This document shows, in pieces, positions 26,242 through 50,788 of a DNA stretch of 64,000 bases (positions are counted from its first letter, which is position 1; the number at the start of each line of letters is the position of its first letter). The notes under the pieces are model-generated. The model saw only the letters and a program-made list of their open reading frames with translations. It did not search any database and had not been told where the DNA came from. Both the position numbers and the translations under genes were made by a program. Where the stretch lies: assembly GCA_038206875.1 (NCBI GenBank), contig JBBRAK010000004.1:3174-67173 (forward strand), read 5' to 3'. This stretch comes from Candidatus Saccharimonadales bacterium. GTDB lineage: Bacteria > Patescibacteriota > Saccharimonadia > Saccharimonadales > JBBQAJ01.

Positions 26242-26645
26242 TGGCAGATAAAGCAAAACATTATTTTTACGCACTGGGGCGACGTAAAAGCTCCACATCT
26301 AGAGTCAGACTTATGAATGGCAAGGGTTCAGTTGTTATTAACGGCAAGCCAGCAAACGAATATTTAGCGGATAGTAAATCCCTACTTCATGAACTTGAAC
26401 GTCCGTTCATAGCACTCGAGATTCAGAATAAATACGATGTCAGCGCTGTAGTCTCAGGAGGAGGACACAGTAGCCAGGTAGACGCAATTCGCTTAGGAAT
26501 ATCCAAAGCTCTGGCAGTAATGAATGAAGATTTACGAAGTACTCTAAAAAGAGCTGACATGCTAGGTCGTGACCCTAGAGAAAAAGAACGAAAGAAGTTC
26601 GGTCTCAAGGGCGCCAGAAAACAGCGCCAATTCACCAAACGGTAG
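26238..26645 (+). CDS. rpsI: 30S ribosomal protein S9
   Basis: YFYALGRRKSSTSRVRL...RKQRQFTKR. Confidence 0.97.
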   Translation: MMADKAKHYFYALGRRKSSTSRVRLMNGKGSVVINGKPANEYLADSKSLLHELERPFIALEIQNKYDVSAVVSGGGHSSQVDAIRLGISKALAVMNEDLRSTLKRADMLGRDPREKERKKFGLKGARKQRQFTKR

Positions 26646-26671
26646 ACAACTATTGACAGACATGGTATAAT
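26643..26671 (+). promoter_or_regulatory. promoter of the aromatic-operon leader
   Basis: TAGACA (26643-26648), 17-nt spacer, TGG + TATAAT (26663-26671). An ATG lies 7 nt after the -10 box. Confidence 0.6.
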
Positions 26672-26678
26672 GTATCTT

Positions 26679-26744
26679 ATGTTAAGAGTAAGTTTTTGGA
26701 ACTACGCATACTTTATCAACCCCCGAGTGGCGACGAGTTCATAG
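26679..26744 (+). CDS. candidate leaderless leader peptide MLRVSFWNYAYFINPRVATSS (aromatic codon run)
   Basis: 21 codons. Codons 6-12 read F W N Y A Y F. No SD; the ATG sits at the predicted transcription start. Followed by a terminator, then the aroG-pheA-tyrA-like genes. Confidence 0.55.
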   Translation: MLRVSFWNYAYFINPRVATSS

Positions 26745-26767
26745 CGATTGCAAAATCACCCAAGAAC

Positions 26768-26791
26768 AAAACCGCCAAGAGGCGGTTTTTT
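26768..26791 (+). terminator. intrinsic terminator (attenuator) upstream of the DAHP synthase gene
   Basis: AAAACCGCC AAGA GGCGGTTTTTT. Lies 27 nt before the aroG-like start. Confidence 0.8.
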
Positions 26792-28089: not shown

Positions 28090-29282
28090 TGACAGAGTTA
28101 GCTGTTGGAATTCAAGGTGGGGCGGGTAGTTTCCATCACGAAACTGGGCTCGAATATTTTGGAGCTGGGAACGTTGATAGGTTTGTATCATTCCCAGACC
28201 ATGATGCAATGCTTAGTAACTTATTTGACAGATACTCTGACTTGCACGTTGCAATTATTGCGGTTGATAATAATACTTCAGGTAGAGTCCTAAGCGCAGT
28301 TGAAGCACTTAGCAAACAAACGGACGTTCGGGTCGTGGGCAGTATTACTCGGAGAATTAATCAGTATTTGTGGGTTTATCCAGGTCACGATCCAGATGAT
28401 GTTGAAGCTGTCATTTCTCAACAACCTGCATTGGATCAGTGTGAACAAAATATTGCTGCCGCTGGGTATACGCCAGAGGATTACTTTGATACAGCTGAAG
28501 CAGCGCGTCGAATAAGTACTTCAAAGGGGAAATACAAGAACTACAAGTCCACTGGTGCAATTGCATCACAAACGGCCGGTGAACTATATGGGCTGACTAT
28601 GGTTCGTAAGTTTAACGACAATGAAAACAATGCTACAAAATTTTGGGTTATATCTGATAGCGAGACTAACACTGAAGGGACACATTCCGCACTCACATTT
28701 GAAGTACCAGACATTAAGGGTGGGCTCTTAAGAGCGGTAGAGAGAATATGGCAGGAATGCGGTTTTAATTTGACTGACATTGATAGCCATCTTGCATCTG
28801 CACTTGACGGTGACCGAGGCTTTTTCGCAGAAATTACTCAAGATGATCCTAGCGTGATGCGCGAGTTGCTTATAAAATATCTTGTAGCTGATGGATATAA
28901 GCCTCACGTTCTGGGCAACTACACACCAAAGGGTGAAGATCTTGAGGTTATTGATGAAAACCATCAGATACCTCCAGCTCTTAGGCATGACAAATGGGCT
29001 GGAAGAAAGGGGCTGATATATCCAGAAGGGTCAACAAGATTGTATGTTGAAACAAATCATAAATCTGGTGCACTCTATAGTGTTCTGGGCTGCCTCGCGT
29101 CATGCAACTTAGTTGATCTAGGACGTCCTGTTAATCCGAAAGACAACAGATTTAACAGAGGTTTCTATATAGTACTCGACCCAACCACGCCGAGTATTAT
29201 TGAAAAATTAGCAACAGCAACAATTAAAGCACAGGGCTTTCATGTTGAAATTGTTGAAGATGGAGAGAAAGTAGTAGCATGA
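28089..29282 (+). CDS. pheA: prephenate dehydratase with two ACT-like domains
   Basis: PDT blocks VGIQGGAGSFHHE, SQQPALDQCEQ, GAIASQTAGELYGL, NATKFWVIS. ACT1 HSALTFEVPDIKGGLL...NLTDIDSH. ACT2 TRLYVETNHKSGALYSVLG...LGRPVNP...RGFYIVLD. Confidence 0.8.
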   Translation: MTELAVGIQGGAGSFHHETGLEYFGAGNVDRFVSFPDHDAMLSNLFDRYSDLHVAIIAVDNNTSGRVLSAVEALSKQTDVRVVGSITRRINQYLWVYPGHDPDDVEAVISQQPALDQCEQNIAAAGYTPEDYFDTAEAARRISTSKGKYKNYKSTGAIASQTAGELYGLTMVRKFNDNENNATKFWVISDSETNTEGTHSALTFEVPDIKGGLLRAVERIWQECGFNLTDIDSHLASALDGDRGFFAEITQDDPSVMRELLIKYLVADGYKPHVLGNYTPKGEDLEVIDENHQIPPALRHDKWAGRKGLIYPEGSTRLYVETNHKSGALYSVLGCLASCNLVDLGRPVNPKDNRFNRGFYIVLDPTTPSIIEKLATATIKAQGFHVEIVEDGEKVVA

Positions 29283-30052
29283 GTAGCACTGAGGTTATCG
29301 GTATCGTTGGAGTGTATGGTGATTTGGGACGTCAGATGGTTGTGCAGGTAGGGAATGCTTCTCAAAATGTGATAGGATACGATATCCCTAGTGCCGTGCC
29401 AGTGTCAGCACGATTTGGAATAGACTCAAAACTTTCAGCATCTGCGCTGACTACACAGCCAGAATTGGTAGATAATTTAGGGGATTTAATCCATGAGTCT
29501 AGCATAGTTCATTGGTGCGCCCCGATTGGTGCACTAAAATCTCTAGGAGAAGTATGTGAAGATACTATGGTTGTATTACATGATGGTGTGATGCATACTA
29601 GCACTTCAGCAGAGAAAAGATTGCTACAACGGCCAAATTTCGCTGGCCGAATTGCAATAGTGCACTGTTTGATGAATCCCGAGAAGACGGTTATTATTGA
29701 CTCTGATGCACCGGCTATGGAAGAAGCTTTTGAGCACTTCCTTGGTATTGGGCTTAGGCCCGACCTAATGACTGTCGAGGAACATGATTATATGATGGCC
29801 GTAATGCAGGGTCTGTTTGCGGTGGCTATTCAAGGAACAAGCGGTGGACGCTTGGATGAATACCAACTGGCTGGTCGGATGACTCCTTCAGGGTTGCATT
29901 TTAAAGAAGCAAGAGATTCCAGAGATTCTAAATGGACACATCAAACCAAAGAATCTATATTTAGAAACCCCGAACTGAAAAAGCTAGTACGCGTACTTCT
30001 CGATTTGCTTGAAAATCCAAACCAGCCAAGACACGATGAGCTTGACATATAA
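29279..30052 (+). CDS. tyrA: prephenate/arogenate dehydrogenase-like
   Basis: IGIVGVYGDLGRQM (compare TyrA IVGGGGQMGR), IVHCLMNP (compare LHPMFGP), TVEEHDYMMAVMQGL (compare AVEHDQNMAFIQAL). Confidence 0.6.
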   Translation: MSSTEVIGIVGVYGDLGRQMVVQVGNASQNVIGYDIPSAVPVSARFGIDSKLSASALTTQPELVDNLGDLIHESSIVHWCAPIGALKSLGEVCEDTMVVLHDGVMHTSTSAEKRLLQRPNFAGRIAIVHCLMNPEKTVIIDSDAPAMEEAFEHFLGIGLRPDLMTVEEHDYMMAVMQGLFAVAIQGTSGGRLDEYQLAGRMTPSGLHFKEARDSRDSKWTHQTKESIFRNPELKKLVRVLLDLLENPNQPRHDELDI

Positions 30053-30071
30053 ATTGGTAGTGTGATAGTAT
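30042..30071 (+). promoter_or_regulatory. promoter of the trp-operon leader
   Basis: TTGACA (30042-30047), 18-nt spacer with TG (30063-30064), TAGTAT (30066-30071). An ATG lies 7 nt after the -10 box. Confidence 0.6.
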
Positions 30072-30078
30072 TGCTCTT

Positions 30079-30168
30079 ATGTCTAATTTACAAGATGATC
30101 AAATAATACCTAACCTTGGTCAGCAAGGTGCATGGCGAAACTCTCAGGATACATGGGAGTCTATTTAG
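30079..30168 (+). CDS. candidate leaderless leader peptide MSNLQDDQIIPNLGQQGAWRNSQDTWESI (two Trp codons)
   Basis: 29 codons. TGG at 30133-30135 and 30154-30156. Its 3' end (30155-30164) is complementary to the terminator 5' arm (30196-30204). Confidence 0.5.
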   Translation: MSNLQDDQIIPNLGQQGAWRNSQDTWESI

Positions 30169-30197
30169 TTTTGTAAATTTTTAGTAATGCAATTTAT

Positions 30198-30219
30198 AGC
30201 TCCCGAAAGGGAGTTTTTT
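30198..30219 (+). terminator. intrinsic terminator (attenuator) upstream of hyp-trpB-trpA-trpS
   Basis: AGCTCCC GAAA GGGAGTT followed by TTTT. Lies 18 nt before the next ATG, which has an AAGGAG RBS. Confidence 0.8.
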
Positions 30220-30236
30220 AATTTAAGGAGAAAATA

Positions 30237-30710
30237 ATGAGTGAATTTGAACAACAACGAAGCTATGTTAGGTCGTTTGGTCCTTACATAGGAGACGAGA
30301 TTGAGTTTTACCAATCCGATGAAGTTACTAATCAAACAGGTCAGGGACCTAAGGAGTATGTTGCGACATTTTTAGAGCGAAATATGTATTACGGTATTAT
30401 GAATACTTCAGTGAGCGAATATGCTCAAAATCTCTATGCTTTTCCAGCCCCTCCAGATGAGATGAGTCTGCGTGATTACCACCTTCTGGTTCGAAATTTA
30501 GCGATTGGACTATCCTACGAAGATGAACGTTACGCAGAGCTAGAAGCCTTCGTTTTGGGGATAAGAAACGGAACTCTCGAAGAAGATAGAAAAGCAGGCA
30601 AGGCTTACACAGATTTTAACCCGAGTCAAGGCGACTACAATTTTTTTGAACGGGCTAGAACGGCGATTGAAGGCGCGGGCGGATACTGCTCGGATGGAGG
30701 AATGATATGA
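30237..30710 (+). CDS. hypothetical 157-aa Trp-free, Tyr-rich protein; first cistron of the trp operon
   Basis: AAGGAG RBS. ATGA overlap with trpB. No W and 14 Y residues. No recognisable motif. Confidence 0.7.
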   Translation: MSEFEQQRSYVRSFGPYIGDEIEFYQSDEVTNQTGQGPKEYVATFLERNMYYGIMNTSVSEYAQNLYAFPAPPDEMSLRDYHLLVRNLAIGLSYEDERYAELEAFVLGIRNGTLEEDRKAGKAYTDFNPSQGDYNFFERARTAIEGAGGYCSDGGMI

Positions 30711-31921
30711 CGAATAATGCAGGATACTTTGGACAATATGGTGGTAGATATGTTCCAGAAATGCTTCAACCAACTTTGAAAGAGTTGGCTGAAGTCTATG
30801 ACAAGTTAAAGATTGATTCGAAATTTCAACTGGAACTTCAAGAGCTTCAAACACAATATAACTCTAGACCTACACCCTTAGTGTTTGCAAAAAACCTAAC
30901 AGAAAAGGTGGGGGGTGCCAAGATATATCTAAAAAATGAAGGTATGAATCACACAGGAGCACACAAGATAAATCATTGTCTTGGTCAAGCACTAGTTGCC
31001 CGTAAACTTAAAAAGACCCGTCTTATAGCCGAAACAGGCGCCGGCCAACATGGCCTGGCCACAGCGACCATTGCCGCAAGAATGGGCTTCAAATGTACAG
31101 TCTACATGGGAGAGCTAGACATCGACAGACAAAGGCCAAATGTGTTGCTTATGGAACTGCTAGGCGCAGAAGTGATTCCGGTGAAATTTGGTTCACGAAC
31201 ATTGAAGGACGCAGTCAACGCAGCCATGAAAGACTTACTACAAAATTCCGAAACGACACATTATGTAATAGGGTCTTGTCTGGGGCCAGACCCTTATCCG
31301 AGAATGAACCGAGATTTCCAATCAATTATTGGTAAAGAAATTCATAGCCAGCTCAACAAACTTCCAGACTATATAGTGGCGTGCGTAGGAGGTGGTAGTA
31401 ATGCGTTGGGTGCATTCACGGAGTTTATTGACAAGCAATCGGTGAAACTTATCGCAGTAGAAGCTGGTGGCAAGGGTAAACGCATTGGAGAACATGCGGT
31501 GAGGTTTCCATCAGCAAAGGTAGGCATTATTGAAGGATATAAATCATTTTTTCTTCAGGACAACGATGGCAACACCGCAAAAACTCATAGTGTTGCAGCC
31601 GGACTAGATTATATTGGCATTGGTCCAGAGTTAGCCAATCTACACGACAATGGCAGGGTAAAATTTACAAGTATGACGGATATAGATGCTCTACAGGCTG
31701 TACAATTACTCGCAAAAACGGAAGGAATTATACCTGCACTGGAGTCCGCACATGCGGTTGCTTACGGAGCAAAAATTGCCAAAAAATTGCCAAAAAGCAA
31801 ATTAATTGTTGTCAATGTCTCAGGAAGGGGTGACAAAGATATGTTTACACTTGCTAGGCATTTTGATAATACAAAGTTTCAAAAGTTTTTGGCAGAGGAG
31901 TTAACCCGCTATGAAACATAA
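30707..31921 (+). CDS. trpB: tryptophan synthase beta chain
   Basis: GQYGGRYVPEML, NHTGAHKINH, ETGAGQHG, GGGSNA. Confidence 0.96.
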   Translation: MTNNAGYFGQYGGRYVPEMLQPTLKELAEVYDKLKIDSKFQLELQELQTQYNSRPTPLVFAKNLTEKVGGAKIYLKNEGMNHTGAHKINHCLGQALVARKLKKTRLIAETGAGQHGLATATIAARMGFKCTVYMGELDIDRQRPNVLLMELLGAEVIPVKFGSRTLKDAVNAAMKDLLQNSETTHYVIGSCLGPDPYPRMNRDFQSIIGKEIHSQLNKLPDYIVACVGGGSNALGAFTEFIDKQSVKLIAVEAGGKGKRIGEHAVRFPSAKVGIIEGYKSFFLQDNDGNTAKTHSVAAGLDYIGIGPELANLHDNGRVKFTSMTDIDALQAVQLLAKTEGIIPALESAHAVAYGAKIAKKLPKSKLIVVNVSGRGDKDMFTLARHFDNTKFQKFLAEELTRYET

Positions 31922-32705
31922 ATTGATGACGCATGTGGTTGCTGGATACCCGACCACGGATTTATGCATTGAACTGCTGTTGGGGATGCAAGAGGCAGGA
32001 GTCTGTGCTATTGAAGTTCAAATACCGTTTTCTGATCCAAGCGCGGATGGAGCTTTAATAATGCACGCAAATGACGTCGCCATTCAAAACAGAATGACAA
32101 TAAACCAGTGCTTTAAAATGATTCAAAATGCACGCAAAAAGGGCCTGAACATACCCATATATATAATGTGCTATGCAAATAAACTATACAATTATGGGTT
32201 TGAAGTTTTTTGTAAAAACTCGGTCAAATGTGGCGTTTTCGGTTTTATAGTTCCTGATTTACCACATGATACTAACGAATACTCTGAGTTAAGACAATTC
32301 GCAAACACCAATGGAATTGAGATTGTGCCAGTTCTATCACCTGGCATTCAGTCAGATCGCGTAAAAATGTATCAGTTACATAAAACAAAGCTAGTCTACA
32401 TCACAAGTATGAAAGGTATAACTGGCAATAAGTTGATTATACGTAGTGATTTAATACATCTAATTCGTACAATTCGGAAGCAGTCTGATTGTGAAATTGC
32501 CTTAGGATTCGGAATACGAACCATAGTGCACGTCGATATGGCTTTAGAAATCGCAGATATTGCCGTTGTGGGTAGCGAGGTGATTAGGCATATTGACAGA
32601 AACAATGTGTCTGGTGCGATAAAATTTGTTTCACAACTTGTAGCTGGACAGAAATATTCCTCAATATCAGGAAATTCTACTATACTAGGAGATAACGATG
32701 AGTAA
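31911..32705 (+). CDS. trpA: tryptophan synthase alpha chain
   Basis: IEVQIPFSDPSADG, GFIVPDLP, YITSMKGITG, LGFGI. Confidence 0.9.
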   Translation: MKHKLMTHVVAGYPTTDLCIELLLGMQEAGVCAIEVQIPFSDPSADGALIMHANDVAIQNRMTINQCFKMIQNARKKGLNIPIYIMCYANKLYNYGFEVFCKNSVKCGVFGFIVPDLPHDTNEYSELRQFANTNGIEIVPVLSPGIQSDRVKMYQLHKTKLVYITSMKGITGNKLIIRSDLIHLIRTIRKQSDCEIALGFGIRTIVHVDMALEIADIAVVGSEVIRHIDRNNVSGAIKFVSQLVAGQKYSSISGNSTILGDNDE

Positions 32706-33714
32706 ACAAGTGATATTGACCGGACTTCGAGCCAATAACGACCTGCATATAGGAAACTATTTGGGGGCTCTTTTACCAATTGTTGATATGGCAAAAAGAC
32801 AAGCTAGTGAATATCATGTTAACTTAATGATGGCCGATTTGCACAGTTTCTCTACACCGATTGACCATAGCAAACTCCAGGACCAAATCCAAGCAAATCT
32901 AAACGTGTACGTTGCCGCTGGACTGCCACTGGACAATGAAAACATACGTATTTTTCGTGAAAGCTACGTGCCCGCACACTCCGAGCTAATGCACATTTTA
33001 GATGCATTCACTGGAGTAGGTGAAATGGCAAGAATGACGCAGTACAAAGATAAGTCTAAAAAGATTGGTTCTGATAGGGTTAGTGTCGCACTATTTAACT
33101 ACCCAACCCTAATGTCTGCTGATATCTTGCTATATGGAGCTAGCTATGTGCCTGTTGGGGACGATCAATCACAGCATTTGGAGTTTACTCGAGACATTGC
33201 CAGCCGGATGAACAAAAAATTTGGCGAACTCTTTACAGTTCCAAAACCAGTCAATGAGCAACACAAATTCTTCGGAAACGATCAGGGTTTGCGCATAAAA
33301 GATTTGCTTGACCCTACAAAAAAAATGAGTAAATCGGATGAAACAGGAAAAGGAGTTATATTTTTGAACGAAAATCCCGAATCTGCCAAGAAAAAGATTT
33401 TGGGAGCAACAACTGATTCATTTGGTGATGTACAATACGATTTTATCAAACGGCCCGGGGTTAGTAATTTATTGGATATATTGAGACTACTTGGTGGCAA
33501 TCCCGAGGAGTTCATAGGGCAAAAGCAGTACGGACCACTTAAAACTGCAGTCGCAGAAAAAGTCTCAACTTTTCTATCTGATTTTCAGTCTAAATTGTCT
33601 GAAGTAGAAGACAAGACAGTATTAGAGAAACTTGAATCTAGCGAAAAAACCTTGAACTTACAGGCTAATGCTACTCTGCTCAATGTTCAACATGCCGTTG
33701 GCCTCCGAAAATGA
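32698..33714 (+). CDS. trpS: tryptophanyl-tRNA synthetase
   Basis: LTGLRANNDLHIGNYLGA, KKMSKSD. 338 aa. Overlaps trpA by 8 nt. Confidence 0.92.
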   Translation: MSKQVILTGLRANNDLHIGNYLGALLPIVDMAKRQASEYHVNLMMADLHSFSTPIDHSKLQDQIQANLNVYVAAGLPLDNENIRIFRESYVPAHSELMHILDAFTGVGEMARMTQYKDKSKKIGSDRVSVALFNYPTLMSADILLYGASYVPVGDDQSQHLEFTRDIASRMNKKFGELFTVPKPVNEQHKFFGNDQGLRIKDLLDPTKKMSKSDETGKGVIFLNENPESAKKKILGATTDSFGDVQYDFIKRPGVSNLLDILRLLGGNPEEFIGQKQYGPLKTAVAEKVSTFLSDFQSKLSEVEDKTVLEKLESSEKTLNLQANATLLNVQHAVGLRK

Positions 33715-34562
33715 TAACTTCTCCCAAAGTACCCAAACAGCGCCTAGACCACTACTTAGCAGAAAAATACACAGATATCAGTAGAGCTTTTTTGCAAAAA
33801 CTATGTACAAATGACCAAGTATTAGTAAATGGGCGTCCAGAACGTTCTGGTTATAAACTAAAGCCAACAGACAAAGTAGAAGTCATATATGACATGGCAG
33901 GTATAGAAAAAATTGAAGACATTGATTTGCCAATTTTGTATCAGGATGAGAACGTAATTGTGGTAAACAAGCCTGCTGGAGTAATAAGTCATAGCAGGGG
34001 CAAATTCTGGAATGAACCATCGGTTGCCTCGTTTATCAGACAACTGACTAATCAACCCGGGGGCAGAGCAGGGATTGTACATAGATTAGATAGGGCCACT
34101 TCTGGAGTTATGATATGCGCAAAAACACAGTTAGCTATGATAGCCCTTCAAAAGGAATTTGCCGATAGAAAAGTTAAAAAGATGTATGTTGCGGTAGTTT
34201 CTGGCCATCTGGACCCCAGACAAGCGGTAATTGATATGCCAATTGAGCGAAATCCTAAAGCGCCGTCAACATTTAGAGTTGGCTCAAATGGGAAGACAGC
34301 ACAAACGCAATACAAGGTTACTGAGTCATCAGACAAATATGATTTGGTTCAACTTGAGCCTAAAACTGGTAGGACTCATCAACTGAGAGTCCACATGCAA
34401 CAGCAAAAACATCCAATAGTTGGTGATACTTTGTATGGCGGAGAAACCCATGACAGACTTATGCTACACGCGCTACAAATAAAAATTAAGCTACCGAATG
34501 GTAAAGCAACATTGTTTTCTGCACCCATACCAAATGATTTTGGCGAAATGATGAGTAAATAA
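33711..34562 (+). CDS. rluD: RluA-family pseudouridine synthase with S4 domain (RluD-like)
   Basis: HRLDRATSGVMICAKT. N-terminal S4-like RLDHYLAEKY...VLVNGR. Confidence 0.85.
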   Translation: MITSPKVPKQRLDHYLAEKYTDISRAFLQKLCTNDQVLVNGRPERSGYKLKPTDKVEVIYDMAGIEKIEDIDLPILYQDENVIVVNKPAGVISHSRGKFWNEPSVASFIRQLTNQPGGRAGIVHRLDRATSGVMICAKTQLAMIALQKEFADRKVKKMYVAVVSGHLDPRQAVIDMPIERNPKAPSTFRVGSNGKTAQTQYKVTESSDKYDLVQLEPKTGRTHQLRVHMQQQKHPIVGDTLYGGETHDRLMLHALQIKIKLPNGKATLFSAPIPNDFGEMMSK

Positions 34563-34564
34563 TC

Positions 34565-35425
34565 ATGCAGGAACTACTTCTACACCCAACCACGAGACAT
34601 CAGTTAGTTGCACTCCAGCAATCGCTACCGCATGCTGTTTTGATACATGGCAACTCAGGAACAGGCAAAAAAACTATAACGGATGCATTTGTAACCAGTG
34701 TTGTGGGCAATTTAGACAAAAACAATCCAAATATACTACGAATACTTCCAGAAGATGGAAGCATTGGTATTGAACAAGTACGTAGCATTCGCGAATATCT
34801 AAAACGAAAAACACTTGGTAAAAAAGCTGTACGTAGAATTATTCTCATCGTGGACGCACATCTTTTGACAGTAGAGGCCCAAAATGCATTACTCAAAATG
34901 CTGGAAGAACCCCCCGCCGACACTATTGTGGTACTGACCGCAGATGATGCAAGCAAACTTAGGCATACTATACGCTCTAGATCTCAACAGTTGATTGTTT
35001 TGCCAGTCGATCTTGACACTGCAGAACAGTACTTTAGTTTGCAGGGCTTTAAACAGCAGGACATAGTTTCTGCCTATTACATGAGTGACGGGCGAGCAGG
35101 ACTATTGAACGCGATTTTGAATGATTTTTCAGAGCACGAACTGGTTCAAGCAATAGCATATGCAAAAAAACTACTTAAACAATCATCGTTTGAAAGATTG
35201 ACGCAAATTGACGCTATAGTAAAAGACAAGGAAGGCTTAACAGCAAAATTGCTTGGACTAGAACGAGTTGTGGCAAGTGGACTACGACAAGCAGCGGCAA
35301 AAAATGAATATGCGGTAGCTCGAAAATTCTACAAAATTAGCAAGCTTATTGAAAATTCTAAATATGCGTTGGGTGCAAATGGGAATCCAAAATTAATTAT
35401 TTCAGAATTATTCATAAATTTATAG
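34565..35425 (+). CDS. holB: DNA polymerase III delta' subunit
   Basis: HAVLIHGNSGTGKKT, LLKMLEEPP, TIRSR. Confidence 0.85.
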   Translation: MQELLLHPTTRHQLVALQQSLPHAVLIHGNSGTGKKTITDAFVTSVVGNLDKNNPNILRILPEDGSIGIEQVRSIREYLKRKTLGKKAVRRIILIVDAHLLTVEAQNALLKMLEEPPADTIVVLTADDASKLRHTIRSRSQQLIVLPVDLDTAEQYFSLQGFKQQDIVSAYYMSDGRAGLLNAILNDFSEHELVQAIAYAKKLLKQSSFERLTQIDAIVKDKEGLTAKLLGLERVVASGLRQAAAKNEYAVARKFYKISKLIENSKYALGANGNPKLIISELFINL

Positions 35426-35470
35426 AGAAATAGATTTATGCACTAATGCCTGTATAATGAAAAGTATATT

Positions 35471-36124
35471 ATGTATGAATTAGCCCTTCTGGTGGGATTT
35501 GGAATATTAGCATTGCGTGGCATAAGTCTTCGTGATGAGGAGCTTTCCCCTCTCCCGCGTAAAATTAGCGATAAACTTGGCAGGTTGTGGGACATTGCTC
35601 ACCAAGGAATGCGTGAAAATCGATTTCTAAGAGCCGAAAAGGCTTTGTTGTCCATACTCAAGATTGATGAAAAAAATGCCGCTGCCTATAACAGGCTGGG
35701 CATACTATACGCCAAGCAAAAAGAGTACAAAGATGCTATTGACTGTTTTGAAATTGCCTCTTCAATAGAGCCCACTGCCTCGTCACTACATAACCTAGGG
35801 CTTATATATTATGAAACAGAAGATTATCCAAAGGCATCTGCGGCATTTGAACAGGCAATTAACTTAGAAAGCGATTTAGCAGCTCGTCATATTGCTTACG
35901 CAAAAGTTCAGGAGAAACTTGGAAACAGTAAACTGATGTTGCAAGAGCTAGAAATTGCCGTTGAGTTAGAGCCTAACAAAGAGAGCTACGTACTGCTAAT
36001 GAACAGTTACAGAAGTAATGGACAGGCAGAAGACGCTGATTTGATAGAAAGCAAGCTTCAAAAACTTATAACGCCTTCTGGGTCGCCCAAGCGCATTGTT
36101 CGACCAAAAAGAGTCGTTATATAA
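35471..36124 (+). CDS. TPR-repeat protein with N-terminal hydrophobic segment
   Basis: Repeated AxxYxxLGxxYxxxxxYxxAIxxFExA units. TG + TATAAT at 35451-35458 upstream. Confidence 0.8.
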   Translation: MYELALLVGFGILALRGISLRDEELSPLPRKISDKLGRLWDIAHQGMRENRFLRAEKALLSILKIDEKNAAAYNRLGILYAKQKEYKDAIDCFEIASSIEPTASSLHNLGLIYYETEDYPKASAAFEQAINLESDLAARHIAYAKVQEKLGNSKLMLQELEIAVELEPNKESYVLLMNSYRSNGQAEDADLIESKLQKLITPSGSPKRIVRPKRVVI

Positions 36125-36142
36125 CGTAACCCGGTTTTTTAT

Positions 36143-37021
36143 ATGGAAAAAGCAATTGTTAGCGGAGAGGTTGTAGATAAAAACCTTGTGGTCATACCAA
36201 TAGATAATAAAGGGTACTTTTTTGATTTTTGCGTGTATTCGACCATGAAAGTATTGCAAGGCAAGCTTTTTTTCCCGGATTTCCACGCAGAGCGGATTAT
36301 TGAGTCAGCCAACTTGCTAGGTATTAAACACAATTTAAATGTGTCGGATGTTTCTAAATGGCTAGCTAAGCTGGTAAAAGTAAACAAATATGAGAATTCT
36401 TTAATTCGAATGGTACTGGTCGGCGATCCTGATGATGTTGAATACGGTAGTTTATATATTTTTGCGGTAGGCTCACTCACTTTTTATCCTAACAAATTCT
36501 ATACCGGAGGCGTCAAAGTTATCACATATCCAGGTGAACGGCTTGTGCCAAAAGCAAAATCAAAAGACTTACTTTTGTCAGCTCTAGCGTACAGAGAAGC
36601 AAAAAAACACGGTGCATTAGACGCACTACTTGTTGACAATAACGGAAATATCCGAGAAGGAACTAGAACAAACTTTTTTGCAATAAGAGGCAACCAGCTG
36701 ATAACTCCACCTGCTGAGCAGGTTTTGGGTGGGATAGTTCAAAAATTAGTAATAAAACTATCGAAACCTGACTTTGAAATTGTACGTGAAGATATCCCAC
36801 TTCTCAAAATTGAAGAATACGATGAGTTCTTTATGACCAATACGAGCATGAACGTCATGCCTATCAATCAAATAGACGACCATAAGTTTGTTTCAAATTT
36901 TCCAAAAACCAAACAAATCCAAAAACTACTAAAACACTACTACAAAACCAATAATTTGATGCATAGTTATCTACCAACTACGAACGATATTCCGCACCCA
37001 ATAATACCACTATCTAATTAG
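36143..37021 (+). CDS. class IV aminotransferase (BCAT / D-aminotransferase / ADC-lyase family)
   Basis: EGTRTNFFAIRGNQLITPP, VLGGIVQ, fold-type IV pattern. Subfamily not resolvable by eye. Confidence 0.75.
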   Translation: MEKAIVSGEVVDKNLVVIPIDNKGYFFDFCVYSTMKVLQGKLFFPDFHAERIIESANLLGIKHNLNVSDVSKWLAKLVKVNKYENSLIRMVLVGDPDDVEYGSLYIFAVGSLTFYPNKFYTGGVKVITYPGERLVPKAKSKDLLLSALAYREAKKHGALDALLVDNNGNIREGTRTNFFAIRGNQLITPPAEQVLGGIVQKLVIKLSKPDFEIVREDIPLLKIEEYDEFFMTNTSMNVMPINQIDDHKFVSNFPKTKQIQKLLKHYYKTNNLMHSYLPTTNDIPHPIIPLSN

Positions 37022-50295: not shown

Positions 50296-50788
50296 GGTTT
50301 AATACTGATATAACCGAAACCAAGTCCAACATTGATAATCTAGCGGCTTCGGTAGCGGGATATTCAACTCGAGGCGTTGCTTCAGATACTGCGTTATATC
50401 TTCCTAAAACTACGTCCGGTATGCGCCCAGGGTCCGCGACCCAAATATGTTCAACATCCAGTTCGTCACGTAACAAATGGGCAATCTTTTTCATTTCATC
50501 ATAGACAGCGCCAATAATGGGGACCACAGTGCCGTTTTTTTCAGTTCCAAACTGCCTCTCTGAAAATACCGTTGCATGATTTTGCATTGCAGAGTCTAGC
50601 TCTCGCTCGTACTCATCTAACTCATGATAATAATGAGGGTCGGATAGAACCTCAGCAAGATCCAATCTAAAAGGATATACTTCATCTGGTGAATTTTCTG
50701 TAAATGTATTTTCATTAAAAATACCTACACGATATTCTACAGTTCGTATAGCTTCTAACGGCGAATGTTTCAAAAATGGTACTACCAT
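50288..50788 (-). CDS. hypothetical 166-aa acidic protein
   Basis: Clean ORF with a near-consensus leaderless promoter upstream. Converges on and overlaps tmk-thyX by 8 nt. No motif recognised. Confidence 0.7.
   Translation of the reverse strand: MVVPFLKHSPLEAIRTVEYRVGIFNENTFTENSPDEVYPFRLDLAEVLSDPHYYHELDEYERELDSAMQNHATVFSERQFGTEKNGTVVPIIGAVYDEMKKIAHLLRDELDVEHIWVADPGRIPDVVLGRYNAVSEATPRVEYPATEAARLSMLDLVSVISVLNPS

Follow-up and report, generated by a model that had tools for sequence, protein, structure and literature searches.

A probable leaderless tryptophan attenuator ahead of trpB-trpA-trpS in a Saccharimonadales bacterium

Ribosome-mediated transcription attenuation takes its classic form in the trpL leaders of Escherichia coli and other enterobacteria, where, in the Yanofsky model, a short open reading frame (ORF) with Trp codons precedes RNA segments that form mutually exclusive helices 1:2, 2:3 and 3:4. 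Helix 3:4, with its U tract, acts as an intrinsic terminator; a ribosome that terminates at the stop codon hides segment 2 by virtue of where that codon stands, and the quantity read out is charged tRNA-Trp. Here we describe a locus of this layout in a 64,000-nucleotide stretch of a Candidatus Saccharimonadales contig (JBBRAK010000004.1; hereafter the window), at positions 30042-30236 of the + strand, where a promoter, a 29-codon ORF and a terminator precede the genes hyp157, trpB, trpA and trpS. We consider it likely that this element is a functional, leaderless, Trp-sensing, ribosome-mediated transcription attenuator, with charged tRNA-Trp as its proposed read-out. It shows no similarity to E. 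coli trpL in sequence or at the level of covariance models (Rfam), and while E. coli trpL has two tandem Trp codons inside segment 1, the window has one conserved Trp codon 7 nt upstream of that segment. The genes also differ (trpBA, trpS and an unknown ORF, as against trpEDCBA), and, unlike in E. coli, the TrpR operator at the promoter has decayed.

Leaderless sensory ORFs have precedents in two other groups of bacteria. In Deinococcus deserti, 14 leaderless leader peptides were predicted from maps of transcription start sites, including one ahead of trpEGD with its start site at -1 (PMC4007540), and in mycobacteria leaderless polycysteine short ORFs have been experimentally shown to attenuate at the translation level (bioRxiv 10.1101/834739). 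As in those cases, the sensory ORF of the window would stand at the transcription start, and a stalled ribosome is predicted to remodel the RNA downstream. Unlike them, it comes from the phylum Patescibacteria (Saccharimonadales), is predicted from sequence, whereas those studies had transcriptome data, and probably owes its leaderless state to a fusion with the leaderless start of a trpR gene; it also differs from the mycobacterial elements in having a canonical terminator. A chlamydial trpL leader peptide in an intergenic region has been proposed. For the trpRBA operon of Chlamydia trachomatis, YtgR, Trp-dependent attenuation and an internal promoter are described as the means of control (PMC7755916, PMC6504234), and its order of trpR, attenuator region and trpB-trpA recurs in eight relatives of our locus (L002, L087, L163-L166, L169 and L171), again in reduced-genome bacteria with trpBA beside trpR. 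In contrast, the window has lost trpR and packs leader and terminator into ~140 nt. In Firmicutes, T-boxes acting on trpS and on trp genes similarly co-regulate synthesis and charging through tRNA-Trp charging and a choice between terminator and antiterminator; here, however, the sensor would be the translating ribosome rather than direct tRNA binding, and the leader of only ~140 nt has no T-box match. A literature search on leaderless mRNAs or attenuators in the candidate phyla radiation (CPR) or Saccharibacteria found none. The proposed mechanism is textbook attenuation, and the element is a new example of it in an unusual phylum and with an instructive origin.

The promoter comprises a -35 box, TTGACA (30042-30047), and a -10 box, TAGTAT (30066-30071), with TGn upstream of it and an 18-nt spacer between the boxes; a consensus scan also listed GATAGT, at a spacing of 16 nt, as another possible -10. 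Seven nucleotides (TGCTCTT) separate the -10 box from ATG 30079, and the 20 nt 5' of this codon (GTGATAGTATTGCTCTT) contain no GGAG, GAGG or AGGA, and thus no Shine-Dalgarno (SD) sequence, in contrast to hyp157, which has AAGGAG, and to the homologous leaders of L163-L166, which have AGGAA or AAGGAG. Since an in-frame TAG stands at 30058-30060, ATG 30079 is the only possible start of the leader ORF (30079-30168, + strand; MSNLQDDQIIPNLGQQGAWRNSQDTWESI), for which we found homologues in nine other loci. TGG occurs at codon 19 (30133-30135), 11 codons before the stop, and again at codon 26 (30154-30156). The original prediction, made from the letters of the window, had described this promoter, its spacing, the SD-less start and the two TGG codons, and all were recovered on re-analysis and translation. 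The same distance from -10 to ATG, again with no SD, is found at the leader of L007 (a Saccharimonadales metagenome-assembled genome, MAG), at seven trpR genes and at four leaders of another, aromatic type, and from this geometry we infer that the 5' end of the leader mRNA is A30079 itself or a base no more than 1-3 nt from it. By itself the window gives modest statistical support, as 5.2% of its ATG-initiated ORFs of 20-40 codons carry at least two TGG; non-randomness is shown by conservation in relatives.

Downstream of codon 19, the + strand RNA can be divided into four segments. Segment 1 (ACUCUCA, 30140-30146) pairs with segment 2 (UGGGAGU, extended by CUAU, 30154-30164), which holds codon 26 and pairs either with segment 1 or with segment 3 (AUAGCUCCC, 30196-30204). 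Segment 3 serves the terminator as its 5' arm and the antiterminator as its 3' arm, and together with segment 4 (GGGAGUU and the U6 tract, 30209-30219) it was recognized by a terminator scan as an intrinsic terminator: AGCTCCC (30198-30204), GAAA, GGGAGTT (30209-30215) and T6 (30214-30219), at -10.9 kcal/mol. For the antiterminator, RNAduplex pairs GGGAGTCTAT (30155-30164) with ATAGCTCCC (30196-30204) at -12.6 kcal/mol, and an equally good or better duplex with the terminator arm was obtained in 30 of 2000 dinucleotide shuffles of the leader ORF. The original prediction had proposed both the CTCCC-GAAA-GGGAG hairpin with its T6 and a 9-bp antiterminator with one bulged T, and exactly this bulged duplex, GGGAGUCUAU/AUAGCUCCC, is what RNAduplex returns for the window. 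The hairpin of segments 1 and 2 (30140-30146 with 30154-30160; -7.8 kcal/mol), which the original prediction lacked and which occurs together with the terminator in the minimum free energy (MFE) fold of the window's leader, completes a classic four-segment attenuator, and because this hairpin exists, a ribosome at Trp19 is needed to free segment 2. The terminator scan also listed the 1:2 hairpin and the U-rich stretch after it as terminator-like. This hairpin may serve as a pause site that synchronizes ribosome and polymerase.

Over the ten leader sequences compared below, duplex energies range from -10.5 to -15.4 kcal/mol for 2:3, from -8.4 to -13.8 kcal/mol for 3:4 and from -3.3 to -11.2 kcal/mol for 1:2. 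In constrained folds, the 2:3 antiterminator is the MFE structure in 10/10 sequences when the transcript is cut short ahead of segment 4, and with a ribosome at the stop codon the terminator alone remains, again in 10/10. With a ribosome at the Trp codon of the full-length RNA, the terminator is still thermodynamically preferred in eight of the ten, and the decision must therefore be kinetic, with 2:3 forming before segment 4 exists. Termination in E. coli attenuation is likewise decided kinetically.

The spacing of these parts is consistent with masking by a ribosome. Trp19 lies 7 nt 5' of segment 1 and 21 nt 5' of segment 2, and the stop lies 12 nt past the start of segment 2, a placement conserved in the relatives. 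A ribosome protects ~12-15 nt downstream of its A-site codon. Modeled on this footprint, a ribosome with UGG19 in the A site would cover the RNA as far as ~30145-30148, hiding segment 1 and leaving segment 2 free, and one whose A site holds the stop codon (30166) would cover ~30151-30180, which includes segment 2 and excludes segment 3 (30196 onward). The distance of 11 codons from Trp to stop is approximately one footprint, which fits the masking requirement.

In the mechanism that we propose, transcription would proceed from TTGACA-18-TAGTAT, and a 70S ribosome would initiate on the 5'-terminal AUG. With plentiful charged tRNA-Trp, the ribosome would reach the stop at 30166 and cover the 30154-30160 part of segment 2, the 3:4 terminator would fold, and RNA polymerase would stop in the U tract (30214-30219). 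With charged tRNA-Trp scarce, the ribosome would stall with UGG19 in the A site, covering segment 1 and not segment 2; the free segment 2 would pair with segment 3 as soon as the latter is made, no terminator would form, and polymerase would read through into hyp157-trpB-trpA-trpS. With no ribosome on the leader, helices 1:2 and 3:4 would both form and transcription would terminate. Transcripts reading through from the aromatic (aro) operon upstream would carry the AUG internally without an SD and would end at 30214-30219, insulating the two operons from each other. Both the stalling and its regulatory outcome are predictions drawn from the sequence.

The leader set comprises ten distinct homologues including that of the window. 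The leader of L007 has 29 codons (MSKIYGNTINRSISTQTTWQNSHNVRESI) and the same position as the window's; its promoter (TTGACA-18-TAGTAT-7-ATG), segments 1 and 2 (AACUCUC and GGGAGUC) and terminator (CUCCC-N4-GGGAG-U6) all follow the window's design. The other eight came from genome or metagenome loci fetched via trpB: L002 (MTNLHIRQQNTWWNSRYIWESI), L163 (MKTSITITNFGQQGAWRTYIDIWESI), L164 (MKMFVAGITWRNSPILRESFT), L165 (MKNRIVLLTSFGEQGAWWNSHESWELL), L166 (MKIILMNYSQHGAWQNSRYVWESI), L171 (ending in VFWWQRRILREVR), the more distant L087 (MYNHKDKYQAVSWQSYSTSGSS) and L169, equivalent to L170 and L172, in which the leader is the C-terminal tail of TrpR (ending in ALGSWQGNSSSREST). L172 is identical to L169 over the compared 421-nt trpR-leader stretch. 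In L087 (420-535), two successive terminator-like hairpins stand between the leader and the small ORF and trpB. Regular-expression and motif scans over more than 170 loci gave no instance beyond these ten. No leader precedes trpC-trpB in L173, nor trpB in L084, L085, L086 and L089, where trpC or trpF lies directly 5' of it. A metagenome scan with trpB found few close relatives with enough upstream DNA (L082, L083, L085 and L162 were too short), and P0026 has a neighborhood of the window's type.

In each of the ten leaders a TGG stands in frame at a distance of 10-12 codons from the stop, eight times at exactly 11, and this sensing TGG is the only invariant codon of the set; it is a tandem TGG-TGG in three (L002, L165 and L171), and the 9 to 82 codons before it are free in sequence. 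The arrangement GGGAG / CUCCC / GGGAG of antiterminator and terminator is likewise present in 10/10, with compensatory changes beside the core, as is a GC-rich hairpin directly followed by a U4-6 tract. Every orthologous leader therefore keeps both a Trp codon and the complementary segment, which supports the core of the original prediction, an SD-less Trp leader behind a promoter that controls a choice between terminator and antiterminator. Only one of its two Trp codons stands as a sensor, however. Codon 19 is the conserved one, while the counterpart of codon 26 in relatives is TGG, CGG, AGG or GGG. This triplet opens the motif NGG-GAG, and covariation links its first base to the one after CUCCC in the terminator arm (U:A, U:G, C:G). 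Codon 26 is thus constrained as RNA rather than as a sensing codon, and the earlier worry that a stall at this second Trp codon would mask the antiterminator concerns an incidental codon fixed by RNA pairing.

For counts of base pairing we used concatenated, motif-anchored segments, as the CUCCC cores did not stay in register when MAFFT aligned the native leaders. Given the relatedness of the ten sequences, the following counts against shuffles are indicative statistics and not probabilities, with independent information carried only by the pairs flanking the anchored cores. In the 2:3 antiterminator, 87.5% of cells are paired, a level reached by 6/500 shuffles (best slid control, 54%), and three pairs change on both sides (U:A, U:G, A:U, G:C; C:G, U:A, U:G), a count that 78/500 shuffles reach. 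The 3:4 terminator has 91% of cells paired (30/500 shuffles; best slid control, 64%) and one pair changed on both sides (332/500 shuffles). Covariation in relatives, which had been suggested as a check on the antiterminator, thus lends 2:3 moderate support. The extent of the antiterminator was only partly borne out: the GGGAG(U):(A/G)CUCCC core and one flanking pair on each side are conserved, while only the window has the additional CUAU:AUAG pairing.

Ribosomes would reach the sensing codon by different routes in different relatives. In most of them a small gene whose product has the Pfam domain Trp_repressor (trpR) lies immediately 5' of the leader. The leaders of L002 and L163-L166 have their own SD inside the 3' end of trpR, and in L087 the leader ATG overlaps the trpR stop, as it possibly does in L171, where an internal ATG downstream of trpR is the alternative. 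L169, L170 and L172 have no separate leader: the TrpR frame is extended into the attenuator. In L169 (1738-2022; likewise in L170 and L172), this 94-aa frame runs on through GHFKALGSWQGNSSSREST and ends before the terminator, with the sensing Trp codon 11 codons before the TrpR stop, so that the repressor ORF doubles as leader peptide. The window and L007 have no trpR, and their leaders begin at the promoter. That four delivery routes lead to one codon argues that translation of this codon is the selected function.

The trpR genes of the relatives also point to the origin of the leaderless layout. Seven typical trpR loci (L163, L164, L165, L166, L169, L171 and L002) begin with TTGACA-17-TAGTAT-6/7-ATG and no SD, L087 being more divergent. 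A palindrome over the -10 box, TACTAG-N4-CTAGTA, is invariant in the trpR-bearing loci (for example, L163 2244-2287), and it corresponds to the central part of the trp operator of E. coli. Trp repressor sites have CTAG as their core (PMC1166578). The window retains a decayed version of this operator, TgGTAG-TGTG-aTAGTA (30055-30070, + strand), in which both CTAG cores are mutated, and tblastn with eight TrpR queries (that of L002 mistranslated) found no trpR in the 64-kb window at E<0.1. The leader promoters of the window and L007 align with the trpR promoters, with the -35 box (invariant throughout), the -10 box, the ATG and the next bases (ATGTC) conserved; this homology comes from a separate alignment, since MAFFT on whole trpR-leader regions put the deletion gap at the left end. 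The unusual -10 sequence TAGTAT is explained as the right half of the old operator. The peptide begins MSN-L-Q-D, to be compared with MS(N/D/E/A)F(N/K)(D/E/T) in TrpR, and from codon 9-12 on it matches the SD-led leaders (NLGQQGAW against NFGQQGAW in L163).

Sequence comparison thus suggests that the leaderless leader probably arose by deletion of trpR. From an ancestral unit that would have been trpR-trpL-trpBA, a deletion from about trpR codon 7 to the first trpL codons would have fused the leaderless trpR start to the leader; the operator, now useless, would then have decayed, so that Trp would control this promoter through attenuation alone. We lean, if not strongly, toward the view that the lineage displays a stepwise natural rewiring of trp control, from a TrpR-autoregulated leaderless trpR feeding an attenuator, through deletion, to a leaderless attenuator alone. 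The operator palindrome was also seen in L167 (2418-2436), ~65 nt 5' of a trpB that has neither trpR nor leader. Many Saccharimonadales encode proteins of ~495-507 aa that join Trp_repressor (PF01371) and TrpB (PF00291) in one polypeptide, among them P0056, P0061, P0062, P0067, L008 558-2045 and L009 3719-5209.

Several observations weigh against a Trp-responsive, leaderless attenuator. Both the transcription start and the translation of the ORF are deduced from geometry, and the relatedness of the ten sequences and the anchoring of their segments limit the pairing counts as stated above. Helix 1:2 has 71% of cells paired, which 119/500 shuffles reach (slid control, 49%), and its two pairs changed on both sides constitute weak covariation, not above shuffles. 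Helix 1:2 is, in thermodynamic terms, no more stable than the antiterminator in three cases (the window, L007 and L164), so that under Trp-replete conditions termination has to rely on ribosome masking or kinetic coupling. Two or three tandem Trp codons are usual in classic trp leaders, while seven of the ten leaders here (the window, L007, L163, L164, L166, L169 and L087) have a single conserved one, and four of these seven have one Trp codon in total; the response may therefore be shallow. Finally, trpS, rluD and holB, expected to be indispensable, follow without a terminator, implying that the attenuator is leaky or that internal promoters exist. In a promoter scan, weak candidates for such promoters downstream were at chance level.

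These points bear on four other explanations of the locus. The attenuator could sense Trp without being leaderless, its transcripts beginning at a more distant upstream site or arriving from the aro operon, and its AUG being used internally without an SD, for instance by S1-dependent initiation or re-initiation. The terminator scan found nothing between the stop of the upstream 257-aa ORF and the leader, so that read-through transcripts must exist; moreover, the transcription start is placed by inference, and in most relatives the leader is internal and SD-led. Nevertheless, both the window and L007 retain correctly spaced TTGACA and TAGTAT boxes amid operator bases that have decayed, the spacing of 6-7 nt from -10 to ATG without an SD recurs at the seven trpR genes and four aromatic leaders, and the leader ATG lies 27 nt past the upstream stop, so that ordinary stop-start coupling is improbable. 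On balance we regard this explanation as unlikely. In a second alternative, less likely again, deletion of trpR left the small ORF as a scar without function, and the region would consist only of a constitutive promoter and a terminator that shields the aro operon from trpBA-trpS, with no sensing of Trp. The modest statistics of the window alone, the incidental TGG at codon 26, the indispensable genes downstream and the decayed operator, which shows that parts of the region are no longer under selection, would all suit a scar. A scar would not be expected to preserve a 29-codon ORF with TGG19 in both the window and L007 despite a strongly diverged 5' half, or the TGG and the alternative pairing in all ten leaders, and a promoter placed directly before a strong terminator makes sense only with conditional termination.

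A trans-acting factor, an RNA sensor or arrest by the nascent peptide could in principle replace the tRNA-Trp read-out, as in TRAP-like or T-box-like control or in TnaC-like sensing of free Trp within the ribosome tunnel by the motif W-x-N-S-x3-W/R-E-S-I. The C-terminal WxNSxxx(W/R)ESI is indeed fairly similar among the closest six leaders, and TnaC, too, has one conserved Trp codon. The residues conserved in the peptide are those encoded by segments 1 and 2 (AACUCUC and GGGAGUC), however, and the distant leaders of L164, L169, L171 and L087 differ at the C-terminus; arrest induced by free Trp would, moreover, turn a biosynthetic operon on at high Trp, which is the wrong sign. As for RNA and protein sensors, a search of 30000-30300 against Rfam gave nothing at the gathering score, and at E<=10 it gave only unrelated families at chance level, with no T-box or riboswitch match even at that threshold; and the 158-nt leader has only six (G/U)AG triplets, with no TRAP-like array. 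We hold this group of mechanisms to be very improbable, and we say the same of translational control by sequestration of the ribosome-binding site. The leaderless Cys short ORFs of mycobacteria act in that way (bioRxiv 10.1101/834739), but here the SD of hyp157 (AAGGAG, 30225-30230, + strand) lies outside every predicted helix, and a GC-rich hairpin with a U4-6 tract, the form of an intrinsic terminator, is kept in all ten leaders.

Patescibacteria, or CPR bacteria, are regarded as metabolically minimal. In one groundwater study, only 15-18% of the Patescibacteria MAGs of one size fraction contained trpA and trpB (PMC8672522). The conserved leader-peptide family described here would mean that such organisms monitor the charging of tRNA-Trp and adjust both trpBA, for synthesis or salvage, and trpS. 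If functional, the element would give the CPR/Patescibacteria their first documented attenuator of an amino-acid operon, and 70S initiation on a 5'-terminal AUG would suffice to couple translation to termination in an ultra-small, little-regulated bacterium. The loci also suggest an evolutionary series, from repressor plus attenuator, through a repressor frame fused to the attenuator, to a leaderless attenuator alone, which would show how a single deletion can create a leaderless leader. In practical terms, the compact ~180-bp, putatively Trp-responsive element offers a search motif for the annotation of MAGs, and a genetically tractable Saccharibacteria system exists in Southlakia epibionticum (PMC10633639).

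The first regulated gene, hyp157 (30237-30710, + strand; ATG 30237), encodes a lineage-restricted protein of 157 aa that has no Pfam, NCBIfam or PDB match and whose family has only 3 representatives among 1.84 billion proteins; its C-terminal half is 37% identical to an ORF in the corresponding position of L166. Small ORFs of 63-211 aa, related or unrelated to hyp157, fill the slot between leader and trpB in every relative. We tried hyp157 as an anchor for finding relatives and rejected it, as a word-indexed protein search returned only hyp157 itself and its sole other contig begins 37 nt upstream of the gene. It is followed on the + strand by trpB (30707-31921; Pfam PALP), trpA (31911-32705; Pfam Trp_syntA, 1.2e-60) and the tryptophan-tRNA ligase gene trpS (32698-33714; TIGR00233, 257 bits against a cutoff of 177), matches that agree with the original assignment of trpBA and trpS. 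The overlap of trpS with trpA places it in the same transcription unit. The window's TrpB is 70-87% identical to TrpB of Candidatus Saccharibacteria/Saccharimonadales MAGs, which identifies the source as a member of the CPR/Patescibacteria.

After trpS, genes for an rluD-like pseudouridine synthase, holB, a tetratricopeptide repeat (TPR) protein and a 292-aa ORF follow (33711-37021) with overlaps or very short gaps, and the terminator scan detected no further + strand terminator before ~37 kb. Upstream lies the aro operon, with genes for DAHP (3-deoxy-D-arabino-heptulosonate 7-phosphate) synthase and prephenate dehydratase (PDT) and, as its last member, the 257-aa ORF (29279-30052; stop 30050-30052), whose end the -35 box of the leader promoter overlaps. 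This ORF has no Pfam, NCBIfam or PDB match; its N-terminus contains a GxGxxG-like motif (GIVGVYGDLG), and its counterpart in L007 has 252 aa. Its position suggests a divergent prephenate or arogenate dehydrogenase. L007 shares the synteny of the window throughout: DAHP synthase, PDT, the 252-aa ORF, leader, small ORF, trpB, trpA, trpS, rluD and holB.

A second leaderless leader of similar design lies 3.4 kb upstream of the first, ahead of the DAHP synthase-PDT-257-aa operon (26643-26791). It has a TAGACA-17-TATAAT promoter followed after 7 nt by ATG 26679, a peptide, MLRVSFWNYAYFINPRVATSS, with F6, W7, Y9, Y11 and F12 (FWNYAYF), and a terminator, CCGCC-AAGA-GGCGG-T6 (26772-26791), with a fold z-score of -3.4. 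The resemblance between the two leaders had been noted in the original prediction, and they do share promoter, 7-nt gap, ORF and terminator design. L004 (16-93), L006 (1019-1093) and L007 (150-212) have homologues of it, leaderless "YWF" leaders that likewise stand before DAHP synthase. In the neighboring aro operon the charging of aromatic tRNAs would probably be monitored as well. Elsewhere in the window, a 166-aa ORF on the - strand at 50788 begins 8 nt after a promoter-like site, TTGACA-17-TAATAT, and by this spacing may be another leaderless gene.

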